Shown: positions 52 through 48,271 of the stretch, in pieces
How positions within the stretch are numbered: position 1 is the stretch's first letter
How the letters are laid out: each line of letters begins with the position of its first letter
Source of the DNA: a virus
Taxonomy: Duplodnaviria; Caudoviricetes
Virus record (IMG/VR): IMGVR_UViG_3300037722_001206
Location: 1 to 48,356 of that record
Direction: 5' to 3' (one strand)
Length of the DNA: 48,356 nucleotides
The notes under the pieces: model-generated
What the model was told of the DNA's origin: nothing
The model's database searches: none
What the model saw: the letters and a program-made list of their open reading frames with translations, nothing else
Position numbers and translations under genes: made by a program

Positions 52-125
52 TGGAGGCCCGGGCCGGAATCGAACCGACGTACGGGGCTTTGCAGGCCCC
101 TGCATAACCACTCTGCCACCGGGCC
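52..125 (-). tRNA. tRNA-Cys(GCA), intact, CCA encoded
   Basis: Minus strand reads GGCCCGGTGGCAGAGTGGTTATGCAGGGGCCTGCAAAGCCCCGTACGTCGGTTCGATTCCGGCCCGGGCCTCCA: 74 nt, acceptor stem GGCCCGG/CCGGGCC, anticodon GCA, TTCGATTC T-loop. Confidence 0.97.
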
Positions 126-127
126 GG
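86..127. repeat. att core, left copy (42 bp)
   Basis: GGCTTTGCAGGCCCCTGCATAACCACTCTGCCACCGGGCCGG, identical to 48230-48271. Confidence 0.95.
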
Positions 128-3652: not shown

Positions 3653-3880
3653 ATGGAAATTAACACGAAGGACCGGTTGATTGCCGACGTTCACAAATTC
3701 GTGAGCGAGACCGGCATATCGGAAGGCCGATTTGGCCGGTTGACCGTGAACGACGCCAAGCTGATCGCCCGGCTGCGCGCCGGCAAGGACGTGACCACCG
3801 CCAACCTGGACAAGATTTACGCCTTCATGGACGCCGAGCGGGCGCGCCGCGCCGGACCGGTTGGGGCCGCATCATCATGA
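3653..3880 (+). CDS. Cro-like small regulator
   Basis: FVSETGISEGRFGRLTVNDAKLIARLRAGKDVT...KIYAFM, typical of alphaproteobacterial phage Cro-like proteins. Confidence 0.8.
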   Translation: MEINTKDRLIADVHKFVSETGISEGRFGRLTVNDAKLIARLRAGKDVTTANLDKIYAFMDAERARRAGPVGAASS

Positions 3881-4416
3881 CCGGCGCACCCACGGCGCCT
3901 GGCGCCGATCCCCTGGACCGCATGATCGATGGCCTTCAGAGCGCGGCGGCCCGCGAGGCGACGCGCCGGGACCGGGGCAGCAAGGGGCGGGTGAATCCGG
4001 GGCGGTGGGCGATCATTCAGGGGCGGGTCGCGAAGGTTCACAACCACGGCCCGGAGACGAATCCACACGAGCCGGGCAGCGCCGCCGCGTTTTGCTGGAT
4101 GGCCGGCTACAACGGCACGGCCAAGCGCGAAGCCGAAATCAAGCGCACGTCCAAAGCGCTGATCGCGGCGCGGGCCGGAAGAAACGTCAAACGTGAAACA
4201 GGCGCCGGACAAGCCGGCCGGGGCAAGACCGGGCGGGGCCGGTCGGTCCTGGGGCCACGGCGGGACTGGAGCGATCTGGACGACGAAGTTCTCGAGCTCT
4301 GCACCGGCGGCCAGGATGCCTTGTCGGATACGGAGATCGGCACCGTGCTGATCCGCTCGGCCCAGGGCGTGCGCAACCACCGGGCGCGCCAGCGCACGGA
4401 AAAGGACAAGCCGTGA
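3877..4416 (+). CDS. Hypothetical protein with C-terminal HTH-like segment
   Basis: ATGA coupled; WSDLDDEVL...LSDTEIGTVLIRS..GVRNHR resembles a GcrA/Myb-like HTH. Confidence 0.6.
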   Translation: MTGAPTAPGADPLDRMIDGLQSAAAREATRRDRGSKGRVNPGRWAIIQGRVAKVHNHGPETNPHEPGSAAAFCWMAGYNGTAKREAEIKRTSKALIAARAGRNVKRETGAGQAGRGKTGRGRSVLGPRRDWSDLDDEVLELCTGGQDALSDTEIGTVLIRSAQGVRNHRARQRTEKDKP

Positions 4417-9081: not shown

Positions 9082-9332
9082 TTCATATTCGAATTGATGG
9101 CGAATTTGATAACAGGAAACGCAAGTTCGCCTGCGGACTCGGACCCGAACTACCCAAAGGCGATAAGTGGGTAGGTGAAGGCGAATACGGCCAGCATAAA
9201 ATGGTTGATTGCCCAGGCTGCGGCGGCGCGAAGCGACAATTGGGAACGCCGATCTCGGAACTTTCAGGCCAATCCGGTAAGCCTGGTTATGATCGCTTCG
9301 TCGCCATCGCACGTTCATGGGGATATGAATGA
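9078..9332 (+). CDS. Hypothetical protein (lower GC)
   Basis: ATGA coupled on both sides; CPGC motif. Confidence 0.6.
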   Translation: MIHIRIDGEFDNRKRKFACGLGPELPKGDKWVGEGEYGQHKMVDCPGCGGAKRQLGTPISELSGQSGKPGYDRFVAIARSWGYE

Positions 9333-10456
9333 TCGCGATGACCGGCCTTCGGGGGTTTGGGTTCGCGGCGCCGGAGAGTGGCACCGCCCTGGCGCGCTAT
9401 GACGCGGCGCGCGGCGCGCTGGCGGCGGCGCGCTCGATCGACGAGGTGAAGGAGGTGCGCGACAAGGTCGAGGCATTGCGCCTGTACGCGCGCCAGGCGC
9501 ACGACGTCGAGCTGGAGACATGGGCGGCGGAGATCAAGCTGCGGGCGCAGCGGCGCCTGGGCGAATTGAGCCGGGATCTGGAGACCAGCAAGGGCGGGCG
9601 CAATCCGGCGGCTACTCTTGCCGATGGCGGGATGAGTAAGCGCGCGGCGCTGAAGGCGGCGGGGATCTCGACGAGTGCTGCGCATCGGTGCGAGGCGGTG
9701 GCGGCGATCCCCGAGGCCGAGTTCGAGACCTTCATCGCAGGCCGTGCGGCGGCCGGGCAGCCGGTGCACGCGGGCGAGGCGGTCAAGACCCTGCGCCACG
9801 CCGCGCGGCGGGCGGCGGCGATGGCGGCGCAGGGATCGCACCGCACGGATACGACAGCGGACCTGGCGGCGCTCGCGGCCGATGTGGCGGCGGGCGCGCG
9901 GCCGCCGTTCGGCTGCATCCTTGCCGATCCGGCCTGGGAATACGAGACCTGGAGCGAGGGCGGCCAGGGGCGCTCGGCGGCGATGAAATACCGGACCATG
10001 ACCGAGGCCGAGATCGCGGCCCTGGGGGCGCACGTGCGCGTCCTGCCGGCGGACGATTGCCTGCTCATGCTGTGGGGGGTGTGGCCGCAGCTGCCGGGGG
10101 CCTTGGCGGTCATCGCGGCCTGGGGGTTCACGTACAAGACCTGCGGCCTGTTGTGGGAAAAGCTCAACCCGTCGGGCGAAGGGTTCCACGAGGGCATGGG
10201 CAAATGGACGCGGGCAAACACGGAGCCGTGCCTGCTGGCGACCCGCGGGGCCCCGTTCCGCCTGAACACGGACGTGGACCAATTGCTGGTCGCCCCGCGC
10301 GGGCGGCACAGCGAGAAGCCGGCGGAAGCGCACGCGCGCATCGAGCGCCTGGTGGGCGGGCCGTACCTGGAGCTGTTCGGGCGGGCGCGGGTGCCCGGGT
10401 GGACGGTGTGGGGGAACGAGGTGGCCGCCCCCGGCGGTGGGGCGGCGGTGGCATGA
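9329..10456 (+). CDS. MT-A70 family N6-adenine methyltransferase with N-terminal extension
   Basis: ILADPAW, AWGFTYKT..WEK, WTRANTEPCLL, HSEKP, YLELFGR, WTVWGNE. Confidence 0.92.
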   Translation: MIAMTGLRGFGFAAPESGTALARYDAARGALAAARSIDEVKEVRDKVEALRLYARQAHDVELETWAAEIKLRAQRRLGELSRDLETSKGGRNPAATLADGGMSKRAALKAAGISTSAAHRCEAVAAIPEAEFETFIAGRAAAGQPVHAGEAVKTLRHAARRAAAMAAQGSHRTDTTADLAALAADVAAGARPPFGCILADPAWEYETWSEGGQGRSAAMKYRTMTEAEIAALGAHVRVLPADDCLLMLWGVWPQLPGALAVIAAWGFTYKTCGLLWEKLNPSGEGFHEGMGKWTRANTEPCLLATRGAPFRLNTDVDQLLVAPRGRHSEKPAEAHARIERLVGGPYLELFGRARVPGWTVWGNEVAAPGGGAAVA

Positions 10457-10593
10457 ATACTCACGGGGCGGGGATGAATACTTGGGGAATACTTGCGGCG
10501 GCGGCCCTCGGGTCAAGCCCGCGGGTGGTCCACGGATCGGGCCCGAGGGCCAATGTTTCACGTTTGACGTTTCATGGCGGGGTTGGGGCATGA
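10453..10593 (+). CDS. 46-aa spacer ORF
   Basis: ATGA overlap with both flanking methylase genes; contains a REP-like palindrome and the 20-bp motif. Confidence 0.35.
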   Translation: MNTHGAGMNTWGILAAAALGSSPRVVHGSGPRANVSRLTFHGGVGA

Positions 10594-11459
10594 ATGCCCC
10601 ACGGCGGCCGGCGCTGCGCTGGCATGGCGGCAAGTGGAAGCTGGCGCCGTGGATCGTCGAGCACTTTCCGGCGCATCGGATCTATGTCGAGCCGTATGGC
10701 GGCGCGGCCTCGGTGCTGCTGCGGAAAGAGCGCGCCTACGCCGAGATCTACAACGACCTGGATGGCGCGGTCGTGACCTTGTTCCGGGTGCTGCGCGATC
10801 CCGGCTCGTCGGCCGAGCTGATACGGCGTTTGGAATTGACGCCCTTCGCGCGCGCCGAATTCGAGGATGCCTACGCGCCGGCGGACGATCCGATCGAGAC
10901 GGCGCGGCGGTTGTGCATCCGATCCTTCATGGGATTCGGCTCGGACGGGCATAACCCGGAGACCCGAACGGGCTTCCGCGCGGCCAGCAACCGCAGCGGG
11001 ACCACGCCAGCGCACGATTGGGCGAATTACCCGGAGGCGCTGGCCCGGGTCGCGGCGCGGGTCGGCGGCCTCGTGATCGAGTGCCGGCCCGCGATCGAGG
11101 TCATGCGCGCGCACGACGGCCCGGAGACGCTGCACTATGTGGACCCGCCCTATCTGCCAGCGGTGCGCTCGGCGAAAAGCCGCCGGGGCGGCGGCAAATA
11201 CCATGCCTACGCGCACGAAATGACGGCGGCGGATCATGGCGCATTGCTGGCCTACTTGCGCGATCTGCGCGGCATGGCGGTGCTGTCGGGCTATCCGAGC
11301 GCGGCCTACGACGGCGCCTTGCCCGGCTGGCGGCGGGTCGTGATCGCCGCCCTGGCCGACGGGGCGCGGGCGCGCACGGAGTGCCTGTGGCTGAATCCGG
11401 CGGCGGTGGCGCGGCGCGAACACGGGCCGCTTTGGGCGGCGGCGGGGCTGGCGTCGTGA
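10590..11459 (+). CDS. Dam-like (D12 class) DNA adenine methylase
   Basis: LRWHGGKW, YVEPYGGAASVL, EIYNDLD, YVDPPY. Confidence 0.93.
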   Translation: MNAPRRPALRWHGGKWKLAPWIVEHFPAHRIYVEPYGGAASVLLRKERAYAEIYNDLDGAVVTLFRVLRDPGSSAELIRRLELTPFARAEFEDAYAPADDPIETARRLCIRSFMGFGSDGHNPETRTGFRAASNRSGTTPAHDWANYPEALARVAARVGGLVIECRPAIEVMRAHDGPETLHYVDPPYLPAVRSAKSRRGGGKYHAYAHEMTAADHGALLAYLRDLRGMAVLSGYPSAAYDGALPGWRRVVIAALADGARARTECLWLNPAAVARREHGPLWAAAGLAS

Positions 11460-11487: not shown

Positions 11488-12759
11488 ATGAAGCGGGCGG
11501 GAACAGCATCGCCGGTGAAAAACCTCCGCAAGGCCGGGCGGTCGCGGTGGGAATGGATGCAATGGGCCTGGTCGGCGCCGGTGCGGCCGAGCGGGCGGAA
11601 ATTCGTGCTGGTGGCCCTGTCCGGGCACGTCGATGAAACGGCTCGGGCCTGGCCGAGCCAGGCCTTGCTGTGCCGCGAGACCAGCCAATCGCGGCGCACG
11701 GTACAGCAGCACCTGGAGGCCCTGGAGGCGGACGGATGGCTGACCAGTGAGGCGCGGCGGGACAGCGAAGGGCACTTCGAGGAAAGCGCCTACACGGTGC
11801 ATTATGAGCGCGGCCGGGCCTATGTGGAGGCGGTGCAACAAGGCCGCGATCCGGACGCAGCGGAAGCCCGGCCAGCGGGTGACGAAGGGGATGCCGCAGG
11901 GGCCGACCATGCGCAGATTTCGCGCACGGACCATGCGCAGATTTCGCGCACGGACCATGCGCAGATTTCGCGCACGGACCATGCGCAGATTTCGCCGTCA
12001 CCGTGCGCAGATTCTGCAACCCCCTCTATAGAAGAAATTTCAAAAGAGGAAATAAGAGGGGGCGCGCGCGACGCCGCCGCTGTGGATAACTCTGGCGACG
12101 CGCGCGCCGAGCCTGGAGGCCCCAAATCCGAGGACGAGGCCCCCGGCCCGCCGCCGGCGTGCGCGGTGTGGCGGGAGGCCGAGGCGCGGTTGCGGGCGGT
12201 GCCGGCCTGGGCCCTGCTGTGCCGGGCGATTCCCGACGCCGACGACGGCGAGGTGCTGACCCTGGCGGTGGAGGCGCCGTGGGTGGGCTATGCCATCCTG
12301 GCCTGGGCCTGCGGCGGACCGTTCGGGGCGGAGGCGTTGGTGGGGCGGCGGATCGACTGCCGGGTTCGGCGGTGGGTGCAGGCGGCCCTGGCCGAGCGGG
12401 GCCAGTTCACGGCGGGCAAGCCCTCGCTCGCGGCGCACCGGCGCGACGGCGAGACCGTGCGCCTGGACGATCCGGCCTGGGCGGCCTGGCAGGCGGCGCG
12501 GGCGGAACATCCGGAGTGCGCCTGGCTGGACTGCGCCCTGCCCGACGACATCGAGGACGACGCCCTGGTCGTGCGGGTCGGCGACGCGCGGCACATGACG
12601 CAGCTGCTCGACGGGGCGCTCGATGGGTTGGCGGCGGCCGTGGGCCTGGCGGTGAAGCCGCGCTACGGCGGCGACATGTTCGCGGCCCTGGCGGCACAGC
12701 GGGAGCGCGACCCGCTGCGGGCGGTGGAGACGGCGGGCGATGCAACGGGAACAGGATGA
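11488..12759 (+). CDS. Phage replication initiator (N-terminal HTH_36-like)
   Basis: KFVLVAL...AWPSQALL..ET..SRRTV..HL..LE..GW; internal iterons. Confidence 0.82.
   Translation: MKRAGTASPVKNLRKAGRSRWEWMQWAWSAPVRPSGRKFVLVALSGHVDETARAWPSQALLCRETSQSRRTVQQHLEALEADGWLTSEARRDSEGHFEESAYTVHYERGRAYVEAVQQGRDPDAAEARPAGDEGDAAGADHAQISRTDHAQISRTDHAQISRTDHAQISPSPCADSATPSIEEISKEEIRGGARDAAAVDNSGDARAEPGGPKSEDEAPGPPPACAVWREAEARLRAVPAWALLCRAIPDADDGEVLTLAVEAPWVGYAILAWACGGPFGAEALVGRRIDCRVRRWVQAALAERGQFTAGKPSLAAHRRDGETVRLDDPAWAAWQAARAEHPECAWLDCALPDDIEDDALVVRVGDARHMTQLLDGALDGLAAAVGLAVKPRYGGDMFAALAAQRERDPLRAVETAGDATGTG
11905..12089. repeat. Replication origin: 24-bp iterons, A-rich tract, DnaA box
   Basis: GACCATGCGCAGATTTCGCGCACG at 11905, 11929, 11953, partial at 11977, degenerate at 12001; A-rich run about 12027-12057; TGTGGATAA at 12081. 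Confidence 0.8.
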
Positions 12760-16509: not shown

Positions 16510-17040
16510 TCAGGTGTTCTCTAACTGGCGTTCTTCGACGCGGCATTCGCCGTCGCATGTCCGACAAAAATGCCCCTTATCGAATGTATCGTGAATTTCG
16601 AAGGTCTGGGTCTCGACGTTCCAACAAGCGTAAGCATCGACGAGAACGTCAACGCTTCCGCAGGCCGTGCAGACGATTTTGCATCGGGGCGATTTGCTTA
16701 TTCCCGGCGACAGGTTCGCTGACTTATCGATGATGTGATTTTGAATGAATTCGTCCAGATCGAAACAATCGATCAGATGCCATTCGGCGTCATATTCGTC
16801 CAGGAATTCCTCGATTGATTGTTCGTCGTCATTGTCGTCCAAATCACCTGATTGTTGCTCGCAACGAGACGCCGCCATTTCCAGACGGCAGAAACGCTCC
16901 GCCTGTTCGTGATCCTTGGCCTCGACAACAGTGCCGTAACTGCCGCCTTCAGGGAAATCATCCCAGGTCATGGTTACGTAGAATCGATGGAGACGCAAAA
17001 TTGTGCCGGGATTGCTGATCTCTGGTGTTGTGTTTGTCAT
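16510..17040 (-). CDS. Acidic hypothetical protein with C-terminal Zn ribbon
   Basis: AAGGGAA RBS; CTACGS.DV..DAYA.W...Q...C..C. Confidence 0.75.
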   Translation of the reverse strand: MTNTTPEISNPGTILRLHRFYVTMTWDDFPEGGSYGTVVEAKDHEQAERFCRLEMAASRCEQQSGDLDDNDDEQSIEEFLDEYDAEWHLIDCFDLDEFIQNHIIDKSANLSPGISKSPRCKIVCTACGSVDVLVDAYACWNVETQTFEIHDTFDKGHFCRTCDGECRVEERQLENT

Positions 17041-17048
17041 TGTATCAA

Positions 17049-17122
17049 TTCCCTTGGTTGGTGATCGCGGGATGATCTCCCGTCTGCATCGCGCGAAAAC
17101 GCACGGTGCAGACGTGAGAACA
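17049..17122 (-). ncRNA. Long leader hairpin related to the hammerhead repeats (catalytic core lost)
   Basis: Shares CACGTCTGCA...CGATGCA..GACG and the 17-nt ATCACCAACCAAGGGAA leader; forms a stem of about 23 bp with few mismatches. Confidence 0.5.
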
Positions 17123-17143
17123 TTGAACGATTGAGGGAACAGA

Positions 17144-17557: not shown

Positions 17558-17598
17558 AAAAGAGGGCGCGTCCGGTTCCCGCCGGGTGCGCCCGTCTT
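17558..17598 (-). terminator. Intrinsic terminator after the vWA gene
   Basis: GGGCGCACCCGG-loop-CCGGACGCGCCC followed by TCTTTT on the minus strand. Confidence 0.6.
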
Positions 17599-18747
17599 TT
17601 AGGTGCGACCCATGTGAATCGTCTCGCCCATCGGGGCGATTCTGGCCGGGTCTTTGTTCGTCGAAACCCAAAGAACGGGATAATTCTGCTCTCTGGGGAA
17701 ATCGCGGCAATCGAGATCGGTCAGATAAATCAAACAGACCGGCGTCTCCATATGTTCGTTGACCCAATCGAAGGCCGGGGTGAATCTCGTGCCGCCTGAT
17801 CCGACGGGTTGCAATCTGTCGGGCGGATCGTCGTGAGTGAAGGTCTCGACGTTGGTCACCTGGTGATGGCAATAGACGACGGAGACCTTTTCCGGTTTCA
17901 CGTTTTCGATGATACAGAAAATCTCGCTGGCGAATTGGGCCAGTTCGTCGTCTGAGATACTGCCGGAGGTGTCGACACAAACGGCGATCTCGCCGATCCC
18001 ATCAGGCACCAGTGACGGCAGATAGATGCCGCTGCCGATGAAGCGTCGATTTGGTTTTGTCCAACTGTATCGACGTTCCACACAGGACTCGACAAACGAG
18101 GCGAGAACATCGCGCCAATCAACGATGGATGCTCGGAGCTTGTCGATTTGACGCTCCAAATCTTCACCCATGACGCCGCAGGCTTTGGCGATCTGGGCGG
18201 CCTGTTCGGTTGCAATGCGCCATTCGTTTTCGAGTTGTTTCTGTTGGGCCGGACTTAGGAAATCGGCAGGTCCGCCCCCGGCGTTTGTGAATTCGCCACA
18301 GCCGCCGAAATTGTGCTTGACGGTGTCTTGCTGTGGATCGGCGAGTGACGTGTCTTTTCTCTTGCCGTGGATGCCCGCGTAAATCTGTTCCACGAATTGC
18401 CCGTGAAATTGCGGGTCGTCCAGGTGACCGGCTGGCAGTGTCAGACCCGCGGCTTTTAGAATGCCATTGATCGCGTAATCGCCGGCGATATTGAAGTCCT
18501 CGTGATCCCGCTCGCCCTTTCGGAAGATGTGTCCGAAAGCACAATGGCTGATCTCATGAGCGATCACGCCTTGAAGTTCGGCATTCGACAACGATTCGAC
18601 AAAGTCTTTGTTATAGCGATTCTGTCTGCCGTCGGTTCTCATCGTTTCGATGTTCGGATCTTCGACATATTCGAGTTGGAAGGCCAGCCTGCCCCAGAAC
18701 GGAAAGGACATGACGAGCTGGCTCTTGGCCTTGGTTATTGCATGCAT
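17599..18747 (-). CDS. DUF2201-type metallopeptidase plus vWA domain protein
   Basis: TMRTDG, HEISH (HExxH), NIAGDYAIN; MIDAS VDTSGSI, GSGGTRF, IYLTD. Confidence 0.9.
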   Translation of the reverse strand: MHAITKAKSQLVMSFPFWGRLAFQLEYVEDPNIETMRTDGRQNRYNKDFVESLSNAELQGVIAHEISHCAFGHIFRKGERDHEDFNIAGDYAINGILKAAGLTLPAGHLDDPQFHGQFVEQIYAGIHGKRKDTSLADPQQDTVKHNFGGCGEFTNAGGGPADFLSPAQQKQLENEWRIATEQAAQIAKACGVMGEDLERQIDKLRASIVDWRDVLASFVESCVERRYSWTKPNRRFIGSGIYLPSLVPDGIGEIAVCVDTSGSISDDELAQFASEIFCIIENVKPEKVSVVYCHHQVTNVETFTHDDPPDRLQPVGSGGTRFTPAFDWVNEHMETPVCLIYLTDLDCRDFPREQNYPVLWVSTNKDPARIAPMGETIHMGRT

Positions 18748-18775
18748 GATTTTGTTCCCTTGATCGGTTGGTGAT

Positions 18776-18845
18776 TGGCTTGTCTCATCAGTGCATCGGG
18801 AGCCATCCGGATGCAGAGGCGGCCTACCTGGCCACCTTTCGACAA
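18776..18845 (-). ncRNA. Type II hammerhead ribozyme (HH-A)
   Basis: UUGUC-GAAA-GGUGGCC-aggua-GGCCGCC-UC^UGCAUCcGGA-uggcu-CCCGAUGCA-CUGAUGA-GACAA-GCCA; predicted cut 3' of C18816. Confidence 0.9.
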
Positions 18846-18861
18846 ATGCGCGGGGCAATCG

Positions 18862-19743
18862 CTAGGCATTCATAAAGGGGCCCATTTGATCGGCGATGCT
18901 CTCCGCCGCCGCGGCAATCTTGTTGCGGGCATTTGCGTCGGCCCGCAGATCTTGCGGCGTGATCTTGGTCAAAGTGTTCTCGATCTTTTTCCGCATGGCT
19001 TCGAGATTCGGATCGTCGGAGACATTGAGTCGGGGCAACAGATCGCAAAGTTCCTTGATGTTGCCGACCATGCTGTCGTGGAATTTGCCTTGCACCTTGC
19101 CGGTCTTAGCGTCGACGCGATACGTGCTCAGCCGTTCGGCCATGTGTGATACGCTGTCATGCAGCCGCTTCCACAAATCGCCGACGGCGGCGTCCGTGGC
19201 GGTTTTGATCCGTTCGTCGAGTTTCGCGGCCTGTTTGGCGATTTCTTTCGCGCTCAGATCAAGCACGAAATGCGAGCCATCCGGAATCGGCTGCGCGTTG
19301 GTCTCGAATTCAAACCACGACGGCAGAGCGTTGGCATTCGGATAATCATCCTGGTCGAACATGCCATTGAGCGAGATCTTGGCATCCGTAACGAAATTCG
19401 GATAATCGCGGATGAAATTGGCGACCTCGACATCAAAGGCTTGTTTTAGATCGCGCATCTTGTCGGTCCAGGTCTGATAATTCGCGCTCGGCAGAATGCG
19501 CCAGCCGACGTTGTCCCAGGGCAGCGTGTTTTCGTAATGAAACGCGCGGGCGTTTTGAACAACGGTCCGGATATTCGCCAACGAATCCTTGGCGATGAGA
19601 GCCTTGCTCACGCTGCAGGCATCGCTCGCGGCGTGTTTCAGGGTGTTGACCTCGGCGGTGACCTTGTGATCGAGCTTGCGTGCGCGCCACAAGGAGACGT
19701 TGAGCGAGACCAACATTGCTCGATTTGAGAGTATGTGTGTCAT
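18862..19743 (-). CDS. DUF3150-like helical protein
   Basis: LVSLNVSLWRARKL...K.LI..L...A..........GWRILP...F..Y pattern; sits between MoxR and vWA as DUF3150 does in conjugative elements. Confidence 0.65.
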   Translation of the reverse strand: MTHILSNRAMLVSLNVSLWRARKLDHKVTAEVNTLKHAASDACSVSKALIAKDSLANIRTVVQNARAFHYENTLPWDNVGWRILPSANYQTWTDKMRDLKQAFDVEVANFIRDYPNFVTDAKISLNGMFDQDDYPNANALPSWFEFETNAQPIPDGSHFVLDLSAKEIAKQAAKLDERIKTATDAAVGDLWKRLHDSVSHMAERLSTYRVDAKTGKVQGKFHDSMVGNIKELCDLLPRLNVSDDPNLEAMRKKIENTLTKITPQDLRADANARNKIAAAAESIADQMGPFMNA

Positions 19744-19768
19744 GGTGTGGTTCCCTTGGTTGGTGATT

Positions 19769-19838
19769 TGGCTTGTCATCGTCAGTGCATCGGGAGCCAC
19801 CCGGATGCAGAGACGACCTACCTGGCCGTCTTTCGACA
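19769..19838 (-). ncRNA. Type II hammerhead ribozyme (HH-B), extra U after the core
   Basis: UGUC-GAAA-GACGGCC-aggua-GGUCGUC-UC^UGCAUCcGGG-uggcu-CCCGAUGCA-CUGACGA-U-GACA-AGCCA; predicted cut 3' of C19810. Confidence 0.88.
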
Positions 19839-19839
19839 T

Positions 19840-20832
19840 TTAGATCAGCACGTCGGCGTGTGCCGCGCCCCATTTGATATAGGCCGCGGTGTTGCAAACT
19901 CTCTTGTCGCGACGGACTGCATCGGTCACGCACAGCACGCCGAATTCTTTCGGCAGGCGGTTCGTGTATTGGACGATTTGCTTAAAATTGGCTTCCGAAG
20001 CCTTGTGGGCCAATCCAACGCAGACGGCATAGAGAGTGGCGATGCCGTTGGGTTGTTCGATATCGGGTACATCCGCGCCCTTCGGATCCATGAGGATGCC
20101 GTCGAGATTCGGTAAATCGCGCCAGATACGCAAGAATGACGTGAATTCGGCGGCATGACCTGGGCCAACGGCGCCGGCGTATTCGTCCATCTCGGTTTCC
20201 TCGGGCGGTGTGGTCTTGTAGATGTTGGAGACGAATTCCCAGGATCGCGGCGTTGCCGTTGCCCGCGCCTTCGGATCGAAATTCATAAGGCTGTCGGGCC
20301 GGAAACGGATGAAGGCAACGACCGGGACGGCAACGTCGGCGTTGAGTGCCCAGGATGTCCAATCGTTGTGATCGACGTCGAGATCCAAATGAACGAATCG
20401 ATTTGACAACGCACTGGCCATTTTCTTGGCAGCCGCCTTGTCTTCGATCCTGTTCCCCGCCGCGACGATGGCGCAATCGTCGGGCAGTTCGTATTCGCCA
20501 AGCCGACGATCTCGAACGAGCTGAAAACAGGCGGATTGAACGTCGAGAGCGCCGGCGTTCAATTCATCGAGGAACAGAATGGAGGGTCCGACGCCGTTCG
20601 GCAGAAACTCCGGTGGATTCCAGCGGGTGACGCCGGACTTCACCGAGGGCACGCCGCGCAGATCGACGGGGTCCAGCAAGGCCACCCGCAAATCGATTAC
20701 CTTGCGCTTGAGTGCCGCCGCTGTCTGCTGTGTCACGTCCGATTTGCCGGCCCCTGGGGGTCCCCAGATCATGACCGGCTGATTGGCGTTAATCATGCGG
20801 GCGATGGTGTTGGAAAGTTGGGTCGTTTTCAT
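19840..20832 (-). CDS. MoxR-family AAA+ ATPase
   Basis: Walker A GPPGAGKS, DLRGVP, Walker B LFLDELN, AAGN, ALSNRF, TPRSWE. Confidence 0.92.
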   Translation of the reverse strand: MKTTQLSNTIARMINANQPVMIWGPPGAGKSDVTQQTAAALKRKVIDLRVALLDPVDLRGVPSVKSGVTRWNPPEFLPNGVGPSILFLDELNAGALDVQSACFQLVRDRRLGEYELPDDCAIVAAGNRIEDKAAAKKMASALSNRFVHLDLDVDHNDWTSWALNADVAVPVVAFIRFRPDSLMNFDPKARATATPRSWEFVSNIYKTTPPEETEMDEYAGAVGPGHAAEFTSFLRIWRDLPNLDGILMDPKGADVPDIEQPNGIATLYAVCVGLAHKASEANFKQIVQYTNRLPKEFGVLCVTDAVRRDKRVCNTAAYIKWGAAHADVLI

Positions 20833-20861
20833 TGATTTGGTTCCCTTGGTTGGTTGGTGAT

Positions 20862-20930
20862 TGGCTTGTCTCGTCAGTGCATCGGGAGCCACCCGGATGC
20901 AGACGTGGCCGCTGGGGCCACGTTTCGACG
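20862..20930 (-). ncRNA. Type II hammerhead ribozyme (HH-C)
   Basis: GUC-GAAA-CGUGGCC-ccagc-GGCCACG-UC^UGCAUCcGGG-uggcu-CCCGAUGCA-CUGACGA-GAC-AAGCCA; GUC triplet, predicted cut 3' of C20902. Confidence 0.9.
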
Positions 20931-21174
20931 TTGAAAGAAACGTCTGATTAGATCGTCTTGTGCGATCTTTGCTCCCGGCACCAACCGGGGCGGCAGGCGA
21001 ACCAGATGCCCCGCACGGGACATGGGCCGATTGAACGGCGTTCGGTTCGGGTTTGGCGACCTGTGCGAAAGGGAAAATCGCGGGGTCGGTCTCGATGCGC
21101 GGGGGGTATCTGGCTCACGCTTCCATTCACGTGCAGGCCCCGTCACTCGGGAACAATCGGCATATGACGCTCGA

Positions 21175-21330
21175 TCCAAATAAATAATACATCAAATCAA
21201 AGGGATAACGAATAAAACGTGACGTTTTACTGAAAAACGAAAGAATATTGGCGATCCAGATAATATTATTAGATTAATAACCTAATATTATTGCCCGTTC
21301 TGCTTAGATTATTAGCTGGGTATTGTTTGA
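21175..21330. promoter_or_regulatory. AT-rich divergent control region
   Basis: Very AT-rich stretch with palindrome AAAACGTGACGTTTT at 21214 and TAATATTATT at 21261 and 21283. Confidence 0.55.
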
Positions 21331-21440
21331 CGCAGATCGTCGCGTGTCCATGACAACCGCTCCTGGAGAACATTCGGGCGCGTGTTCCTGTTCCTGACAA
21401 TCGGCCTCACGACACCAACGCGAAATTCTGGGATTTGCGC

Positions 21441-29746: not shown

Positions 29747-30042
29747 TGATGGCGAGCCGGTGGTTGTTGCAACGGCTGTTCTTCCTGTGGGTTACGTTCA
29801 GCATGATCATGTGCGTGGTGATTTTCCTGCCATGGTTTCTGCCGCGCGAAACCGTCTGCGGTCTGCTGGGCCGCTGGAAGGACAGCGTTTGGCGCTGGCA
29901 GCGCGCATTGGGCACGGCCGGCTGTTGGCTGTTTGACCGGATATTGCACACCGACGAGGAAGATTGCGGAACCATCGCGCGCATGGAGGCGACGGCGCGC
30001 CAGGTGCTCTATCGGCGCGGAGAGACCGCCGGATGCGAGTAG
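29746..30042 (+). CDS. Small membrane protein
   Basis: Hydrophobic N-terminus; RETVCGLLGR motif; TGATG coupling. Confidence 0.65.
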   Translation: MMASRWLLQRLFFLWVTFSMIMCVVIFLPWFLPRETVCGLLGRWKDSVWRWQRALGTAGCWLFDRILHTDEEDCGTIARMEATARQVLYRRGETAGCE

Positions 30043-30845
30043 AGACCATCGTCACCTGGAAGTGGCGCAAGCCAGGGTATCGATCCACATTCACCGCCGA
30101 ACACGTCAACGTCGCGCGAGACATGGTGGCGCGCCATTACAAACGACCGCACCGCTTCGTGTGTGTCACCGACGATCCCGCTGGCCTGGACCCTCGCATC
30201 GAGGTCCAGTCCATAGGCGATCTCTGGGCCGATATACCGAACCCATCCTGGCCGGCCGGTCCGAGTTGCTATCGGCGCCTGGCTCTGTTCGCCAGTGACG
30301 CGGAACAACGATTCGGACGGCGTTTCGTCTCGATCGATCTGGATGTGGTGATCACCGGGGATCTGATGCCCGTGTGGGAACGCCCGGAGCCTATCGTGCT
30401 CTGGTCCGATCCTAATTTCCATCCCAAGGGCATGTATTGCGGATCGATGATTCTGCTGAGCGCCGGTGCGGCGCCGGAAATCTACGAGACCTTCGATCCG
30501 CTGATCAGCCCGCGGCAAACCCGTGCGGCCGGATGCATGGGTTCTGACCAAGGTTGGCTGTCGTATAAGCTCGGGCGCGGGCGCCCAGTATGGACCACGG
30601 CGGATGGTGTCTATTCGTTCTGGGTGCATCTGGAAAAACGGAACCGGCGATTGCCGGCGGATGCGCGCATCGTGTTTTTCCACGGGCACCGCGATTCCTG
30701 GCACGCCGACGTGCAGGCGCAACATCCATGGGTGAGGGAGCATTGGCGATGCGAATTTCTTGCCGAAAAGACGATCCCGGATATCCAGGCGCCGACAATT
30801 ATCATCAGTTGTCCGCCCGCGTTCTCGTCGCCGGCGTCGAAATGA
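30033..30845 (+). CDS. GT-A fold glycosyltransferase
   Basis: HVN....MVARH.....RFVCVTDD, IDLDVVITG (DxD), GSDQGWL, RIVFFHG. Confidence 0.85.
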   Translation: MRVETIVTWKWRKPGYRSTFTAEHVNVARDMVARHYKRPHRFVCVTDDPAGLDPRIEVQSIGDLWADIPNPSWPAGPSCYRRLALFASDAEQRFGRRFVSIDLDVVITGDLMPVWERPEPIVLWSDPNFHPKGMYCGSMILLSAGAAPEIYETFDPLISPRQTRAAGCMGSDQGWLSYKLGRGRPVWTTADGVYSFWVHLEKRNRRLPADARIVFFHGHRDSWHADVQAQHPWVREHWRCEFLAEKTIPDIQAPTIIISCPPAFSSPASK

Positions 30846-30889
30846 ATCATTGCATCACCGCCGACGAGGAAAAGGGATTCGCCAGATGA
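30749..30889 (+). pseudogene. Truncated small phage protein
   Basis: MRIS..DDPG...G.E..HCITADEEKG resembles the N-terminal half of a longer phage family; overlapped by the extended GT C-terminus. Confidence 0.4.
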
Positions 30890-31860
30890 CCTGGACGGTG
30901 CCGCGCGAATGGATGGGCGAGACGGCCTGGATCATCGGCGGCGGCGAATCTTTGCGCGGCTTCGACGCGGCGCGTCTGAAAGGCCGCGGACGGGTGATCG
31001 GTGTCAACGAGGCGGGCTTGGCCGCCGATCCGGGCGCGGCCGACGAATTGCCGCACGCGCCGTGGGCCGACGTTCTCTATTGGGCCGACAAACAATGGAT
31101 CAATTGGAATTGGCGGCGTCTAGGCGAACATACGGGGCGCTATCGGGTGGCGCGTTTTGCGCCGGTGATCAGCGAGGATAACGATGCCGGCGCCCGCATC
31201 ACGGCGCAGTACGATATCAAGGTTCTGCCGCCCACAAAGGTGGCCTTGTCGGACAGGCCGACCAGTTTGTCCGGTTTCTGCTCCGGCGGGGCGGCGATCA
31301 ACCTGGCCTATCTGTTCGGGGCGACCCGCATCGTCCTGCTTGGATTCGACATGCAGGGCGGCAATTGGCATGGACGGCATATGCGCGGCGGCGACGAGAA
31401 ACGATATCGCAGCCGATTCATGCCGGCGATCGTCGCGATGGCCGAACCGTTGCGCGGCGCCGGGATCGAGGTCATCAACGCAGTGACCGCACCGGGGGCC
31501 TCGACGTTGACGTGCTTTCCTATCAGGCCGCTCGAAGATGTGCTGGCCGGGATGCCGCCACGAACCGATTCGCCAGGCGGCGCGACGCCCGAGCGGGAAA
31601 CCGCGGAATACCAGGAATCAATCATCGGTCTGGAGATAATCACTGGCCTGGAGGTGATCTCCCCGCTCGCCGTCATGCCGATGATCCGCAAAATGGCGGC
31701 GCGTCCGAATTGTACGATCGTCATCCGTCTCGCCGGGCCGGATATCGTCACTCGCCGCTCGCCGCAATGGTGGCGGCTGCGCCTTCAATTGGCGTTCTCC
31801 GAGGTCATCATGGTGAGCAGCGATAACACACAGGTGGAATTCAAATGCCGCAATCCGTAG
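30886..31860 (+). CDS. MptE/Maf-like (DUF115, sialyltransferase-like fold) transferase
   Basis: IIGGGESL, VIGVN, ADVLYWAD..W, SGGAAINLAYLFGA.RIVLLGFDM, VINA. Confidence 0.8.
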   Translation: MTWTVPREWMGETAWIIGGGESLRGFDAARLKGRGRVIGVNEAGLAADPGAADELPHAPWADVLYWADKQWINWNWRRLGEHTGRYRVARFAPVISEDNDAGARITAQYDIKVLPPTKVALSDRPTSLSGFCSGGAAINLAYLFGATRIVLLGFDMQGGNWHGRHMRGGDEKRYRSRFMPAIVAMAEPLRGAGIEVINAVTAPGASTLTCFPIRPLEDVLAGMPPRTDSPGGATPERETAEYQESIIGLEIITGLEVISPLAVMPMIRKMAARPNCTIVIRLAGPDIVTRRSPQWWRLRLQLAFSEVIMVSSDNTQVEFKCRNP

Positions 31861-48229: not shown

Positions 48230-48271
48230 GGCTTTGCAGGCCCCTGCATAACCACTCTGCCACCGGGCCGG
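48230..48271 (-). repeat. att core, right copy: displaced 5' half of tRNA-Cys
   Basis: Identical to 86-127; covers the tRNA 5' end through the anticodon loop only. Confidence 0.95.

Follow-up and report, generated by a model that had tools for sequence, protein, structure and literature searches.

Three type II hammerhead ribozyme motifs precede the three genes of a single operon in the viral DNA analysed here (the window, meaning the whole stretch of 48,356 nt), and they probably act in protective processing, in which the hammerheads would cut the operon message into hairpin-ended single-gene mRNAs. The operon encodes a MoxR-type AAA+ ATPase, a DUF3150 family protein and a metallopeptidase fused to a vWA domain, and one hammerhead (copies A, B and C, respectively) lies just upstream of the putative ribosome binding site (RBS) of each gene. 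Cutting of the mRNA is supported because hammerheads in related loci show the same bias in position and strand, and because an unrelated ribozyme, twister, occupies the same slot in some of them. All coordinates refer to the whole window; the operon and its hammerheads are read on the minus strand.

Hammerhead units of the operon

The units form a repeat family of three copies, spaced 1092 and 994 nt apart. In every copy, a CUGANGA core, a GAAA and a UH surround a three-way junction, the set of elements by which a hammerhead is recognised, and loops cap stems I and III while stem II is open, as in the type II topology. The cores (CUGACGA from 20877 in copy A, CUGACGA from 19785 in copy B and CUGAUGA from 18791 in copy C) are intact, the GAAA begins at 20926, 19834 and 18840, and the predicted cut sites are 20902/20901, 19810/19809 and 18816/18815, with a GUC triplet in copy A and CUC in copies B and C. 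An earlier note on this DNA had described three minus-strand units of ~70 nt with such cores and cut sites, and they were found where it placed them. The features are listed below, with scores in bits from the Rfam model RF02276 and from R1, a covariance model trained on 19 hammerheads found in related loci, with every window sequence excluded.

20862..20929, minus strand: hammerhead A, type II; RF02276 37.8 bits, R1 64.4 bits, fold z -2.5; stem II 20929-20927/20870-20868, stem III 20922-20904, stem I 20901-20878; GAAA 20926-20923, core 20877-20871, pseudoknot tail 20866-20862
19769..19838, minus strand: hammerhead B, type II; R1 51.9 bits, below Rfam detection; core 19785-19779, extra U at 19778 (after A9), competing misfold predicted; orthologue kept in the closest relative, L081
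18776..18845, minus strand: hammerhead C, type II; R1 55.3 bits, below Rfam detection, fold z -2.5; core 18791-18785
20841..20847, minus strand: AAGGGAA, putative RBS of MoxR, after an A/C-rich spacer
19751..19757, minus strand: AAGGGAA, putative RBS of DUF3150
18755..18761, minus strand: AAGGGAA, putative RBS of the peptidase-vWA gene

Stem III retains 21/21 pairs over the three copies, with three positions changed on both sides and two G-U wobbles, and the covariation reported in the earlier note is thereby upheld. Its further observation that loop I (UGGCU) is complementary to AGCCA on the 3′ side of stem II also holds, giving a pseudoknot of 5 bp in all three copies. As it had likewise claimed, each unit is followed by an AAGGGAA, located 7-8 nt ahead of the ATG, and copy B begins directly behind the preceding gene; a single nucleotide separates the end of the MoxR stop, at 19840, from the first position of stem II, at 19838. 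Judged from these sequences, all three copies are predicted to cleave themselves, leaving 2′,3′-cyclic phosphate and 5′-OH ends.

The Rfam search for Hammerhead_II that the earlier note had proposed recovered one unit of the three: copy A scores 37.8 bits against a gathering cut-off of 37 for RF02276 (clan CL00010), and only copy A passes, with copies B and C unlisted even at E ≤ 5. Copy A shares the topology and core of RF02276, whereas stem III opens with a G-C pair in copies B and C, which have a CUC cut triplet, and copy B carries the extra U after A9. R1 was built because this model missed B and C; it finds all three copies at E ≤ 4e-12, and its next match in the window has 12.8 bits (E 0.27). 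Further, a motif descriptor returns only these three units on both strands of the whole window and 1 match in 4,425,208 bases of shuffled sequence. The descriptor, the shuffles and R1 together rule out that the three motifs are chance matches. R1, the descriptor and the cores also bear out the type II identity, which is qualified in copy B by the extra U and the predicted misfold. One contig from a separate study (run X5) spans the whole 5.1-kb stretch unbroken with 315 letters different, and mis-assembly at the repeats is therefore unlikely.

Related loci and other RNAs at the same junctions

Relatives were collected through DUF3150 alignments, which yielded 220 viral and metagenome loci; in nearly all of them, the MoxR and vWA genes adjoin DUF3150. 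The motif descriptor identifies 41 hammerheads in 30 of these loci; every one is on the coding strand, and the opposite strand has 0. When the window's three are included, none of the 44 lies within the three core genes, and 43 would cut 38-107 nt before an ATG. The 39 distinct copies comprise 30 of type II, 6 of type I and 3 of type III. R1 gives 42 matches over 283 loci, again all on the coding strand, and adds hammerheads in L042, L062, L078 and L115/L116. The slots that bear a hammerhead are 14/114 before MoxR, 5/143 before DUF3150 and 3/120 before the vWA gene.

Of 477 cells, 97.1% are paired in a 19-row alignment of relatives, where 19/27 pairs change on both sides and 0/500 shuffles reach as high a value. 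The loop-tail pseudoknot has at least 4 bp in 25/30 copies, compared with 10.7 expected by chance and a chance maximum of 18, and compensated pseudoknot variants occur in L127, L220 and L089. The GAAA lies 2-9 nt past the upstream stop in 26/30 distinct type II copies.

The closest relative, L081, has a DUF3150 protein with 66% identity and a hammerhead only before DUF3150. This orthologue of copy B has a GUC triplet and lacks the extra U, and the peculiarities of copy B are therefore not conserved. In L081, the slots before the MoxR gene, the vWA gene and the next gene contain hairpins, accompanied by the same A/C spacer and RBS. The hairpin before MoxR (L081:425-480) shares loop letters with stem III of copy A, has no catalytic core and is possibly a decayed hammerhead orthologue.

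Several searches delimit this distribution. Rfam hammerheads were found in only 1/17 other related loci, and a search of 20 further loci, L033 included, gave nothing at the gathering score. No match to the exact pattern of the window's unit was found in metagenome contigs, and single-protein locus searches of viral contigs found nothing. The fetched flanks of 11 terminase relatives contain neither the operon nor a hammerhead. The ribozyme device is optional and lineage-specific, and is not required by the MoxR-DUF3150-vWA operon. The trio itself occurs several times per genome, without ribozymes, in alphaproteobacterial, Binatia and gammaproteobacterial assemblies (L282-L339), a repetition that suggests a multi-copy mobile element.

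Other catalytic RNAs occupy the same positions. In L033, a type I hammerhead precedes each of MoxR, DUF3150 and the vWA gene, and four more lie downstream, making seven related units across the operon and the genes that follow (L033:2773-8760), none of them at the Rfam cut-off. Moreover, in the gap that corresponds to copy B, the one separating MoxR from DUF3150, 5/12 loci picked by eye have twister-P5 ribozymes that score above the Rfam cut-off; a twister model (R2) searched against L001-L200 recovered its 5 training loci and one duplicate, and nothing else. Because unrelated catalytic RNAs are found at one junction, the cut itself looks selected, a pattern suggesting that cutting just upstream of the RBS has been favoured repeatedly.

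In the twister-bearing sister phages, a long bulged stem that is not catalogued, and whose CCUAC and GAGGG strands are invariant, also lies just before the RBS, at positions where sister genes have a twister. In this stem, 12/20 pairs change on both sides. It has no Rfam match and is absent from the window. A model of it gave 14 strong matches among 100 sources, 9 of which are training rows, and a viral scan for the unit returned 56 stretches, with a downstream RBS in 5/56 when re-scored, all from two phages; in the searches made, it is confined to one phage group. This stem may be an RNase III site or a protective hairpin.

L015:829-887, L135:1110-1170, L145:3915-3977, L159:3910-3971, L160:1308-1369: twister-P5 ribozymes
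L021:2795-2852 and 3869-3926, L031:2470-2527 and 3914-3971, L135:57-114, L145:2862-2920, L159:7787-7844, L160:256-313, L226/L236 (three copies): CCUAC/GAGGG stem

Long bulged hairpins are also repeated before two or three operon genes in L007, L103, L150, L173, L207 and L214; in this, they resemble RNase III processing sites. Across the relatives, 69 junctions between adjacent core genes are of the longer kind; 8 of them contain a hammerhead, and among the 61 without one, 39 fold at z ≤ -2.

Proposed processing of the operon message

In the proposed mechanism, a minus-strand transcript would begin upstream of 20930, each unit would fold with its loop I-tail pseudoknot on the nascent message, and cutting after position 17 would occur co-transcriptionally. 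The short stem II (3-5 bp) would allow the pieces to separate. Given the type II topology, the upstream piece would carry at its end the stop codon, followed by the hairpin of stem III and a 2′,3′-cyclic phosphate, whereas the downstream piece would begin with a 5′-OH stem I hairpin 66-69 nt ahead of its ATG. Since the GAAA lies so close behind the stop in 26/30 copies, the stem III hairpin would cap the upstream message at once. Cutting is predicted to yield a MoxR product of 1092 nt, a DUF3150 product of 994 nt and a vWA product of about 1250 nt, with near-identical leaders of 69, 66 and 68 nt. The likely benefit is a set of host-independent, exonuclease-resistant mRNA ends, together with the freeing of each RBS from its upstream context.

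Several results weigh against this processing. The Rfam model misses two of the three copies. The minimum-energy fold of copy B pairs the 3′ strand of stem III with the core, leaving a stem III pair probability of 0.13 in the predicted ensemble, and the misfold is ~5 kcal/mol below the hammerhead-constrained fold; in silico, the cut products of copies B and C can also fold over their own RBS, and the pseudoknot is left out of all these calculations. The covariation of the 19-row alignment leans towards structure, because the descriptor that chose its rows requires pairing. Protection from exonucleases by 5′-OH ends and hairpins depends on the nucleases of the host. The survey of homologous operons suggested in the earlier note did show recurrence in the same slots, with any hammerhead in only 25/149 DUF3150 clusters (90% identity). 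Further, 110/179 junctions between adjacent core genes are shorter than 45 nt, too short for such an element, and a search of 60 bacterial-genome loci together with 3 annotated records returned no R1 match under E 0.1 and one weak AT-rich descriptor match.

Self-cutting of the polycistron into monocistronic mRNAs, as the earlier note had inferred, nevertheless accounts best for the position and strand bias and for the twister in the same slot; it is not new, as such arrays had been described before (PMC3088659, cited, like the other papers below, from part of its text). Its suggestion that the cuts could set stoichiometry within a complex of the three proteins lacks support, because most homologous operons have no ribozymes; most junctions are too short for one, and L081 has a hammerhead before one gene only.

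Other explanations start from the same evidence. The cuts might destabilise the message, with 5′-OH ends feeding a 5′ exonuclease as with glmS in Bacillus, thereby damping or shortening expression of a potentially harmful ATPase-peptidase module or clearing read-through in the lysogen. This is unlikely, even though the operon is antisense to replication and late genes and cellular RNases degrade the RNA after glmS cleavage (PMC6765202). A type II cut puts a hairpin at the extreme 5′ end of each product, and the long gaps that lack a ribozyme in relatives are often filled by plain hairpins (the 39/61 given above); therefore, protection fits better than decay.

A second alternative, which appears quite unlikely, treats the units mainly as repeated leader cassettes of a hairpin and an RBS, spread by duplication or gene conversion for gene shuffling, with cutting incidental or confined to some of the copies. 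The 34 nt from cut site to core do match more closely among the window's copies (33, 32 and 31 of 34) than to the L081 orthologue (30, 29 and 28), the same spacer and RBS stand without a ribozyme before the gene at 17040 and at three L081 slots, and gene order and inserted genes differ among relatives. However, the cores stay intact while the stems vary with compensation, and duplication alone would not yield unrelated ribozyme classes and topologies in one slot.

There is only a slim chance that the gap before the RBS is an interchangeable RNA-cutting slot, occupied independently by three hammerhead topologies, twister-P5 and long bulged stems, in which the CCUAC/GAGGG stem represents a new self-cleaving RNA class. 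Graded or regulated cutting, with copy A fast and copy B partial or dependent on MoxR translation so as to tune a three-protein ratio, is very improbable: the cut triplets differ (GUC in A, CUC in B), copy B has its misfold, its 5′ arm, 1 nt behind the MoxR stop, would lie under the terminating ribosome and translation from the in-frame ATG at 19839 could run through the uncut copy, but the L081 orthologue has GUC and no extra U, placement near the stop is the rule (26/30 copies) and may be genome economy, and the three-protein complex is only hypothetical. Protective processing remains the preferred explanation.

Prophage setting and comparison with known systems

The 48-kb stretch is one integrated prophage, because a pair of identical 42-nt repeats marks its two ends. 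Pfam identifies an integrase, a terminase and a portal protein, PHROGs adds a repressor, a replication initiator, a capsid protein and a tape measure protein, and the best matches of the terminase are Roseobacter phages (55-58%). The operon has the replication genes on one side and the terminase genes on the other and runs antisense to the replication genes and the late genes alike.

86..127 and 48230-48271: attachment repeat, 42 nt identical; the first copy lies in a tRNA gene (55-125) with a GCA anticodon
19840..20832, minus strand: MoxR-type AAA+ ATPase, 330 aa; Pfam AAA_5 E 3.6e-10, PHROG 1297 ATPase E 1e-87
18862..19743, minus strand: DUF3150 family gene, 293 aa; Pfam PF11348 E 8.4e-08, 332 homologues
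17599..18747, minus strand: metallopeptidase (HEISH motif) with vWA, 382 aa; Pfam DUF2201_N E 1.3e-48, DUF2201 E 4.6e-27
17564..17593, minus strand (feature scan lists the plus strand): terminator-like hairpin directly after the vWA stop; fold z -4.1
21322..21350, minus strand: sigma-70-like site, 9/12 matches
17038..17130, minus strand: fourth A/C spacer and AAGGGAA leader, from a motif scan, before a 176-aa gene (17040-16510)

The DUF3150 protein has no NCBIfam match, no PHROG match and no solved relative, an Atlas search with it returned only DUF3150 or unnamed viral clusters, and a literature search on DUF3150 found nothing relevant. An ATG at 19839, right behind the MoxR stop, opens the DUF3150 frame through hammerhead B (19839-19744, minus strand); the gene caller begins there and gives 325 aa (P0001), whereas the homologues begin at 19743.

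The last cut product, of about 1250 nt, would likely have its 3′ end at the hairpin at 17564..17593. The site at 21322..21350, the sole such minus-strand site upstream of the operon, is a weak candidate promoter, as 3 sites of this kind were found and 2.7 are expected by chance. The fourth leader folds as a long bulged hairpin (fold z -5.1) with no hammerhead core and no R1 match; an arm of it resembles hammerhead stem I, and it is possibly a decayed hammerhead copy or an RNase III site.

Upstream of copy A, the non-coding sequence at 20960-21140 contains blocks conserved in L081 (200-380), and AT-rich short repeats lie ahead of the gene for the terminase small subunit, at about 21250-21320. 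These blocks and repeats show no clear fold (z -1.1) and no Rfam or phage match, 20940-21450 has no similar phage record, and they could be packaging or promoter sites. A cos site at 21055-21062, suggested by an 8-nt match to the left end of lambda, is not supported; the match occurs 5 times in the window and differs in L081. Elsewhere in the prophage, four 24-nt-spaced repeats within the replication initiator gene (11881-11995, plus strand) are iteron-like and likely the origin iterons, a pair of genes for DNA methyltransferases is present at 9329-11459, and glycosyltransferase and sialyltransferase-like genes lie between the head and tail genes (29964-31860, plus strand).

Cuts upstream of an RBS that leave a fixed, hairpin-led 5′ end are made by synthetic insulators of the RiboJ type and by RNase III on the early transcript of T7. 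The proposed device of the window would differ from both in being natural, repeated within one operon and free of any need for a host nuclease.

The genes themselves have partial counterparts. In jumbo phages, Iyer 2021 (PMC7824862) described a MoxR and vWA/metallopeptidase pair with a proposed role in virion assembly; as in the window, a MoxR AAA+ ATPase stands beside a vWA domain fused to an N-terminal metallopeptidase, whereas here DUF3150 lies between the two genes and the genome is a 48-kb prophage. The IncC plasmid genes vcrx089-090 encode an AAA_5 and CbbQ_C ATPase with its partner vcrx090, in an ssb-bet-exo operon (PMC7498323). An anti-restriction role like that of vcrx089 was considered and set apart by domain make-up as a weak lead, as the window's ATPase has AAA_5 without a CbbQ_C match and its neighbours are DUF3150 and DUF2201, no direct comparison of the sequences having been made.

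Weinberg 2019 (PMC6765202) found that bacterial hammerhead and twister ribozymes share gene contexts, discussed processing of polycistrons that possibly gives different stabilities or translation efficiencies, and left the function of ribozymes between phage genes open. Both there and here, two unrelated ribozyme classes appear in the same kind of place; here, hammerhead and twister replace each other within a single operon family, at the defined junction of MoxR with DUF3150.

No publication that links MoxR operons with ribozymes was found in the literature searched, mostly non-subscription papers. The locus is a tidy test case, with three near-identical ribozymes in one operon that differ naturally from copy to copy, a close relative that keeps one of them, and distant relatives with other classes or plain hairpins. 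The closest precedent is Perreault 2011 (PMC3088659), which defined type II hammerheads with a loop I-3′ tail pseudoknot, described arrays that flank single genes in prophages and proposed that they yield single-gene mRNAs. That study showed in vitro cleavage for three triple arrays, which come from three other bacteria, and for one of them cleavage in E. coli as well. Several coding-strand hammerheads flanking single genes, and a location in a prophage, are both found in the window, and in both cases the hammerheads lie between consecutive prophage genes near an integrase. The flanked genes are MoxR, DUF3150 and DUF2201 in the window, compared with ardA and unknown genes among those named for the published arrays. 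The layout of one ribozyme per gene has been in print since 2011, and the window is a clean new example of it, not a new type of system.

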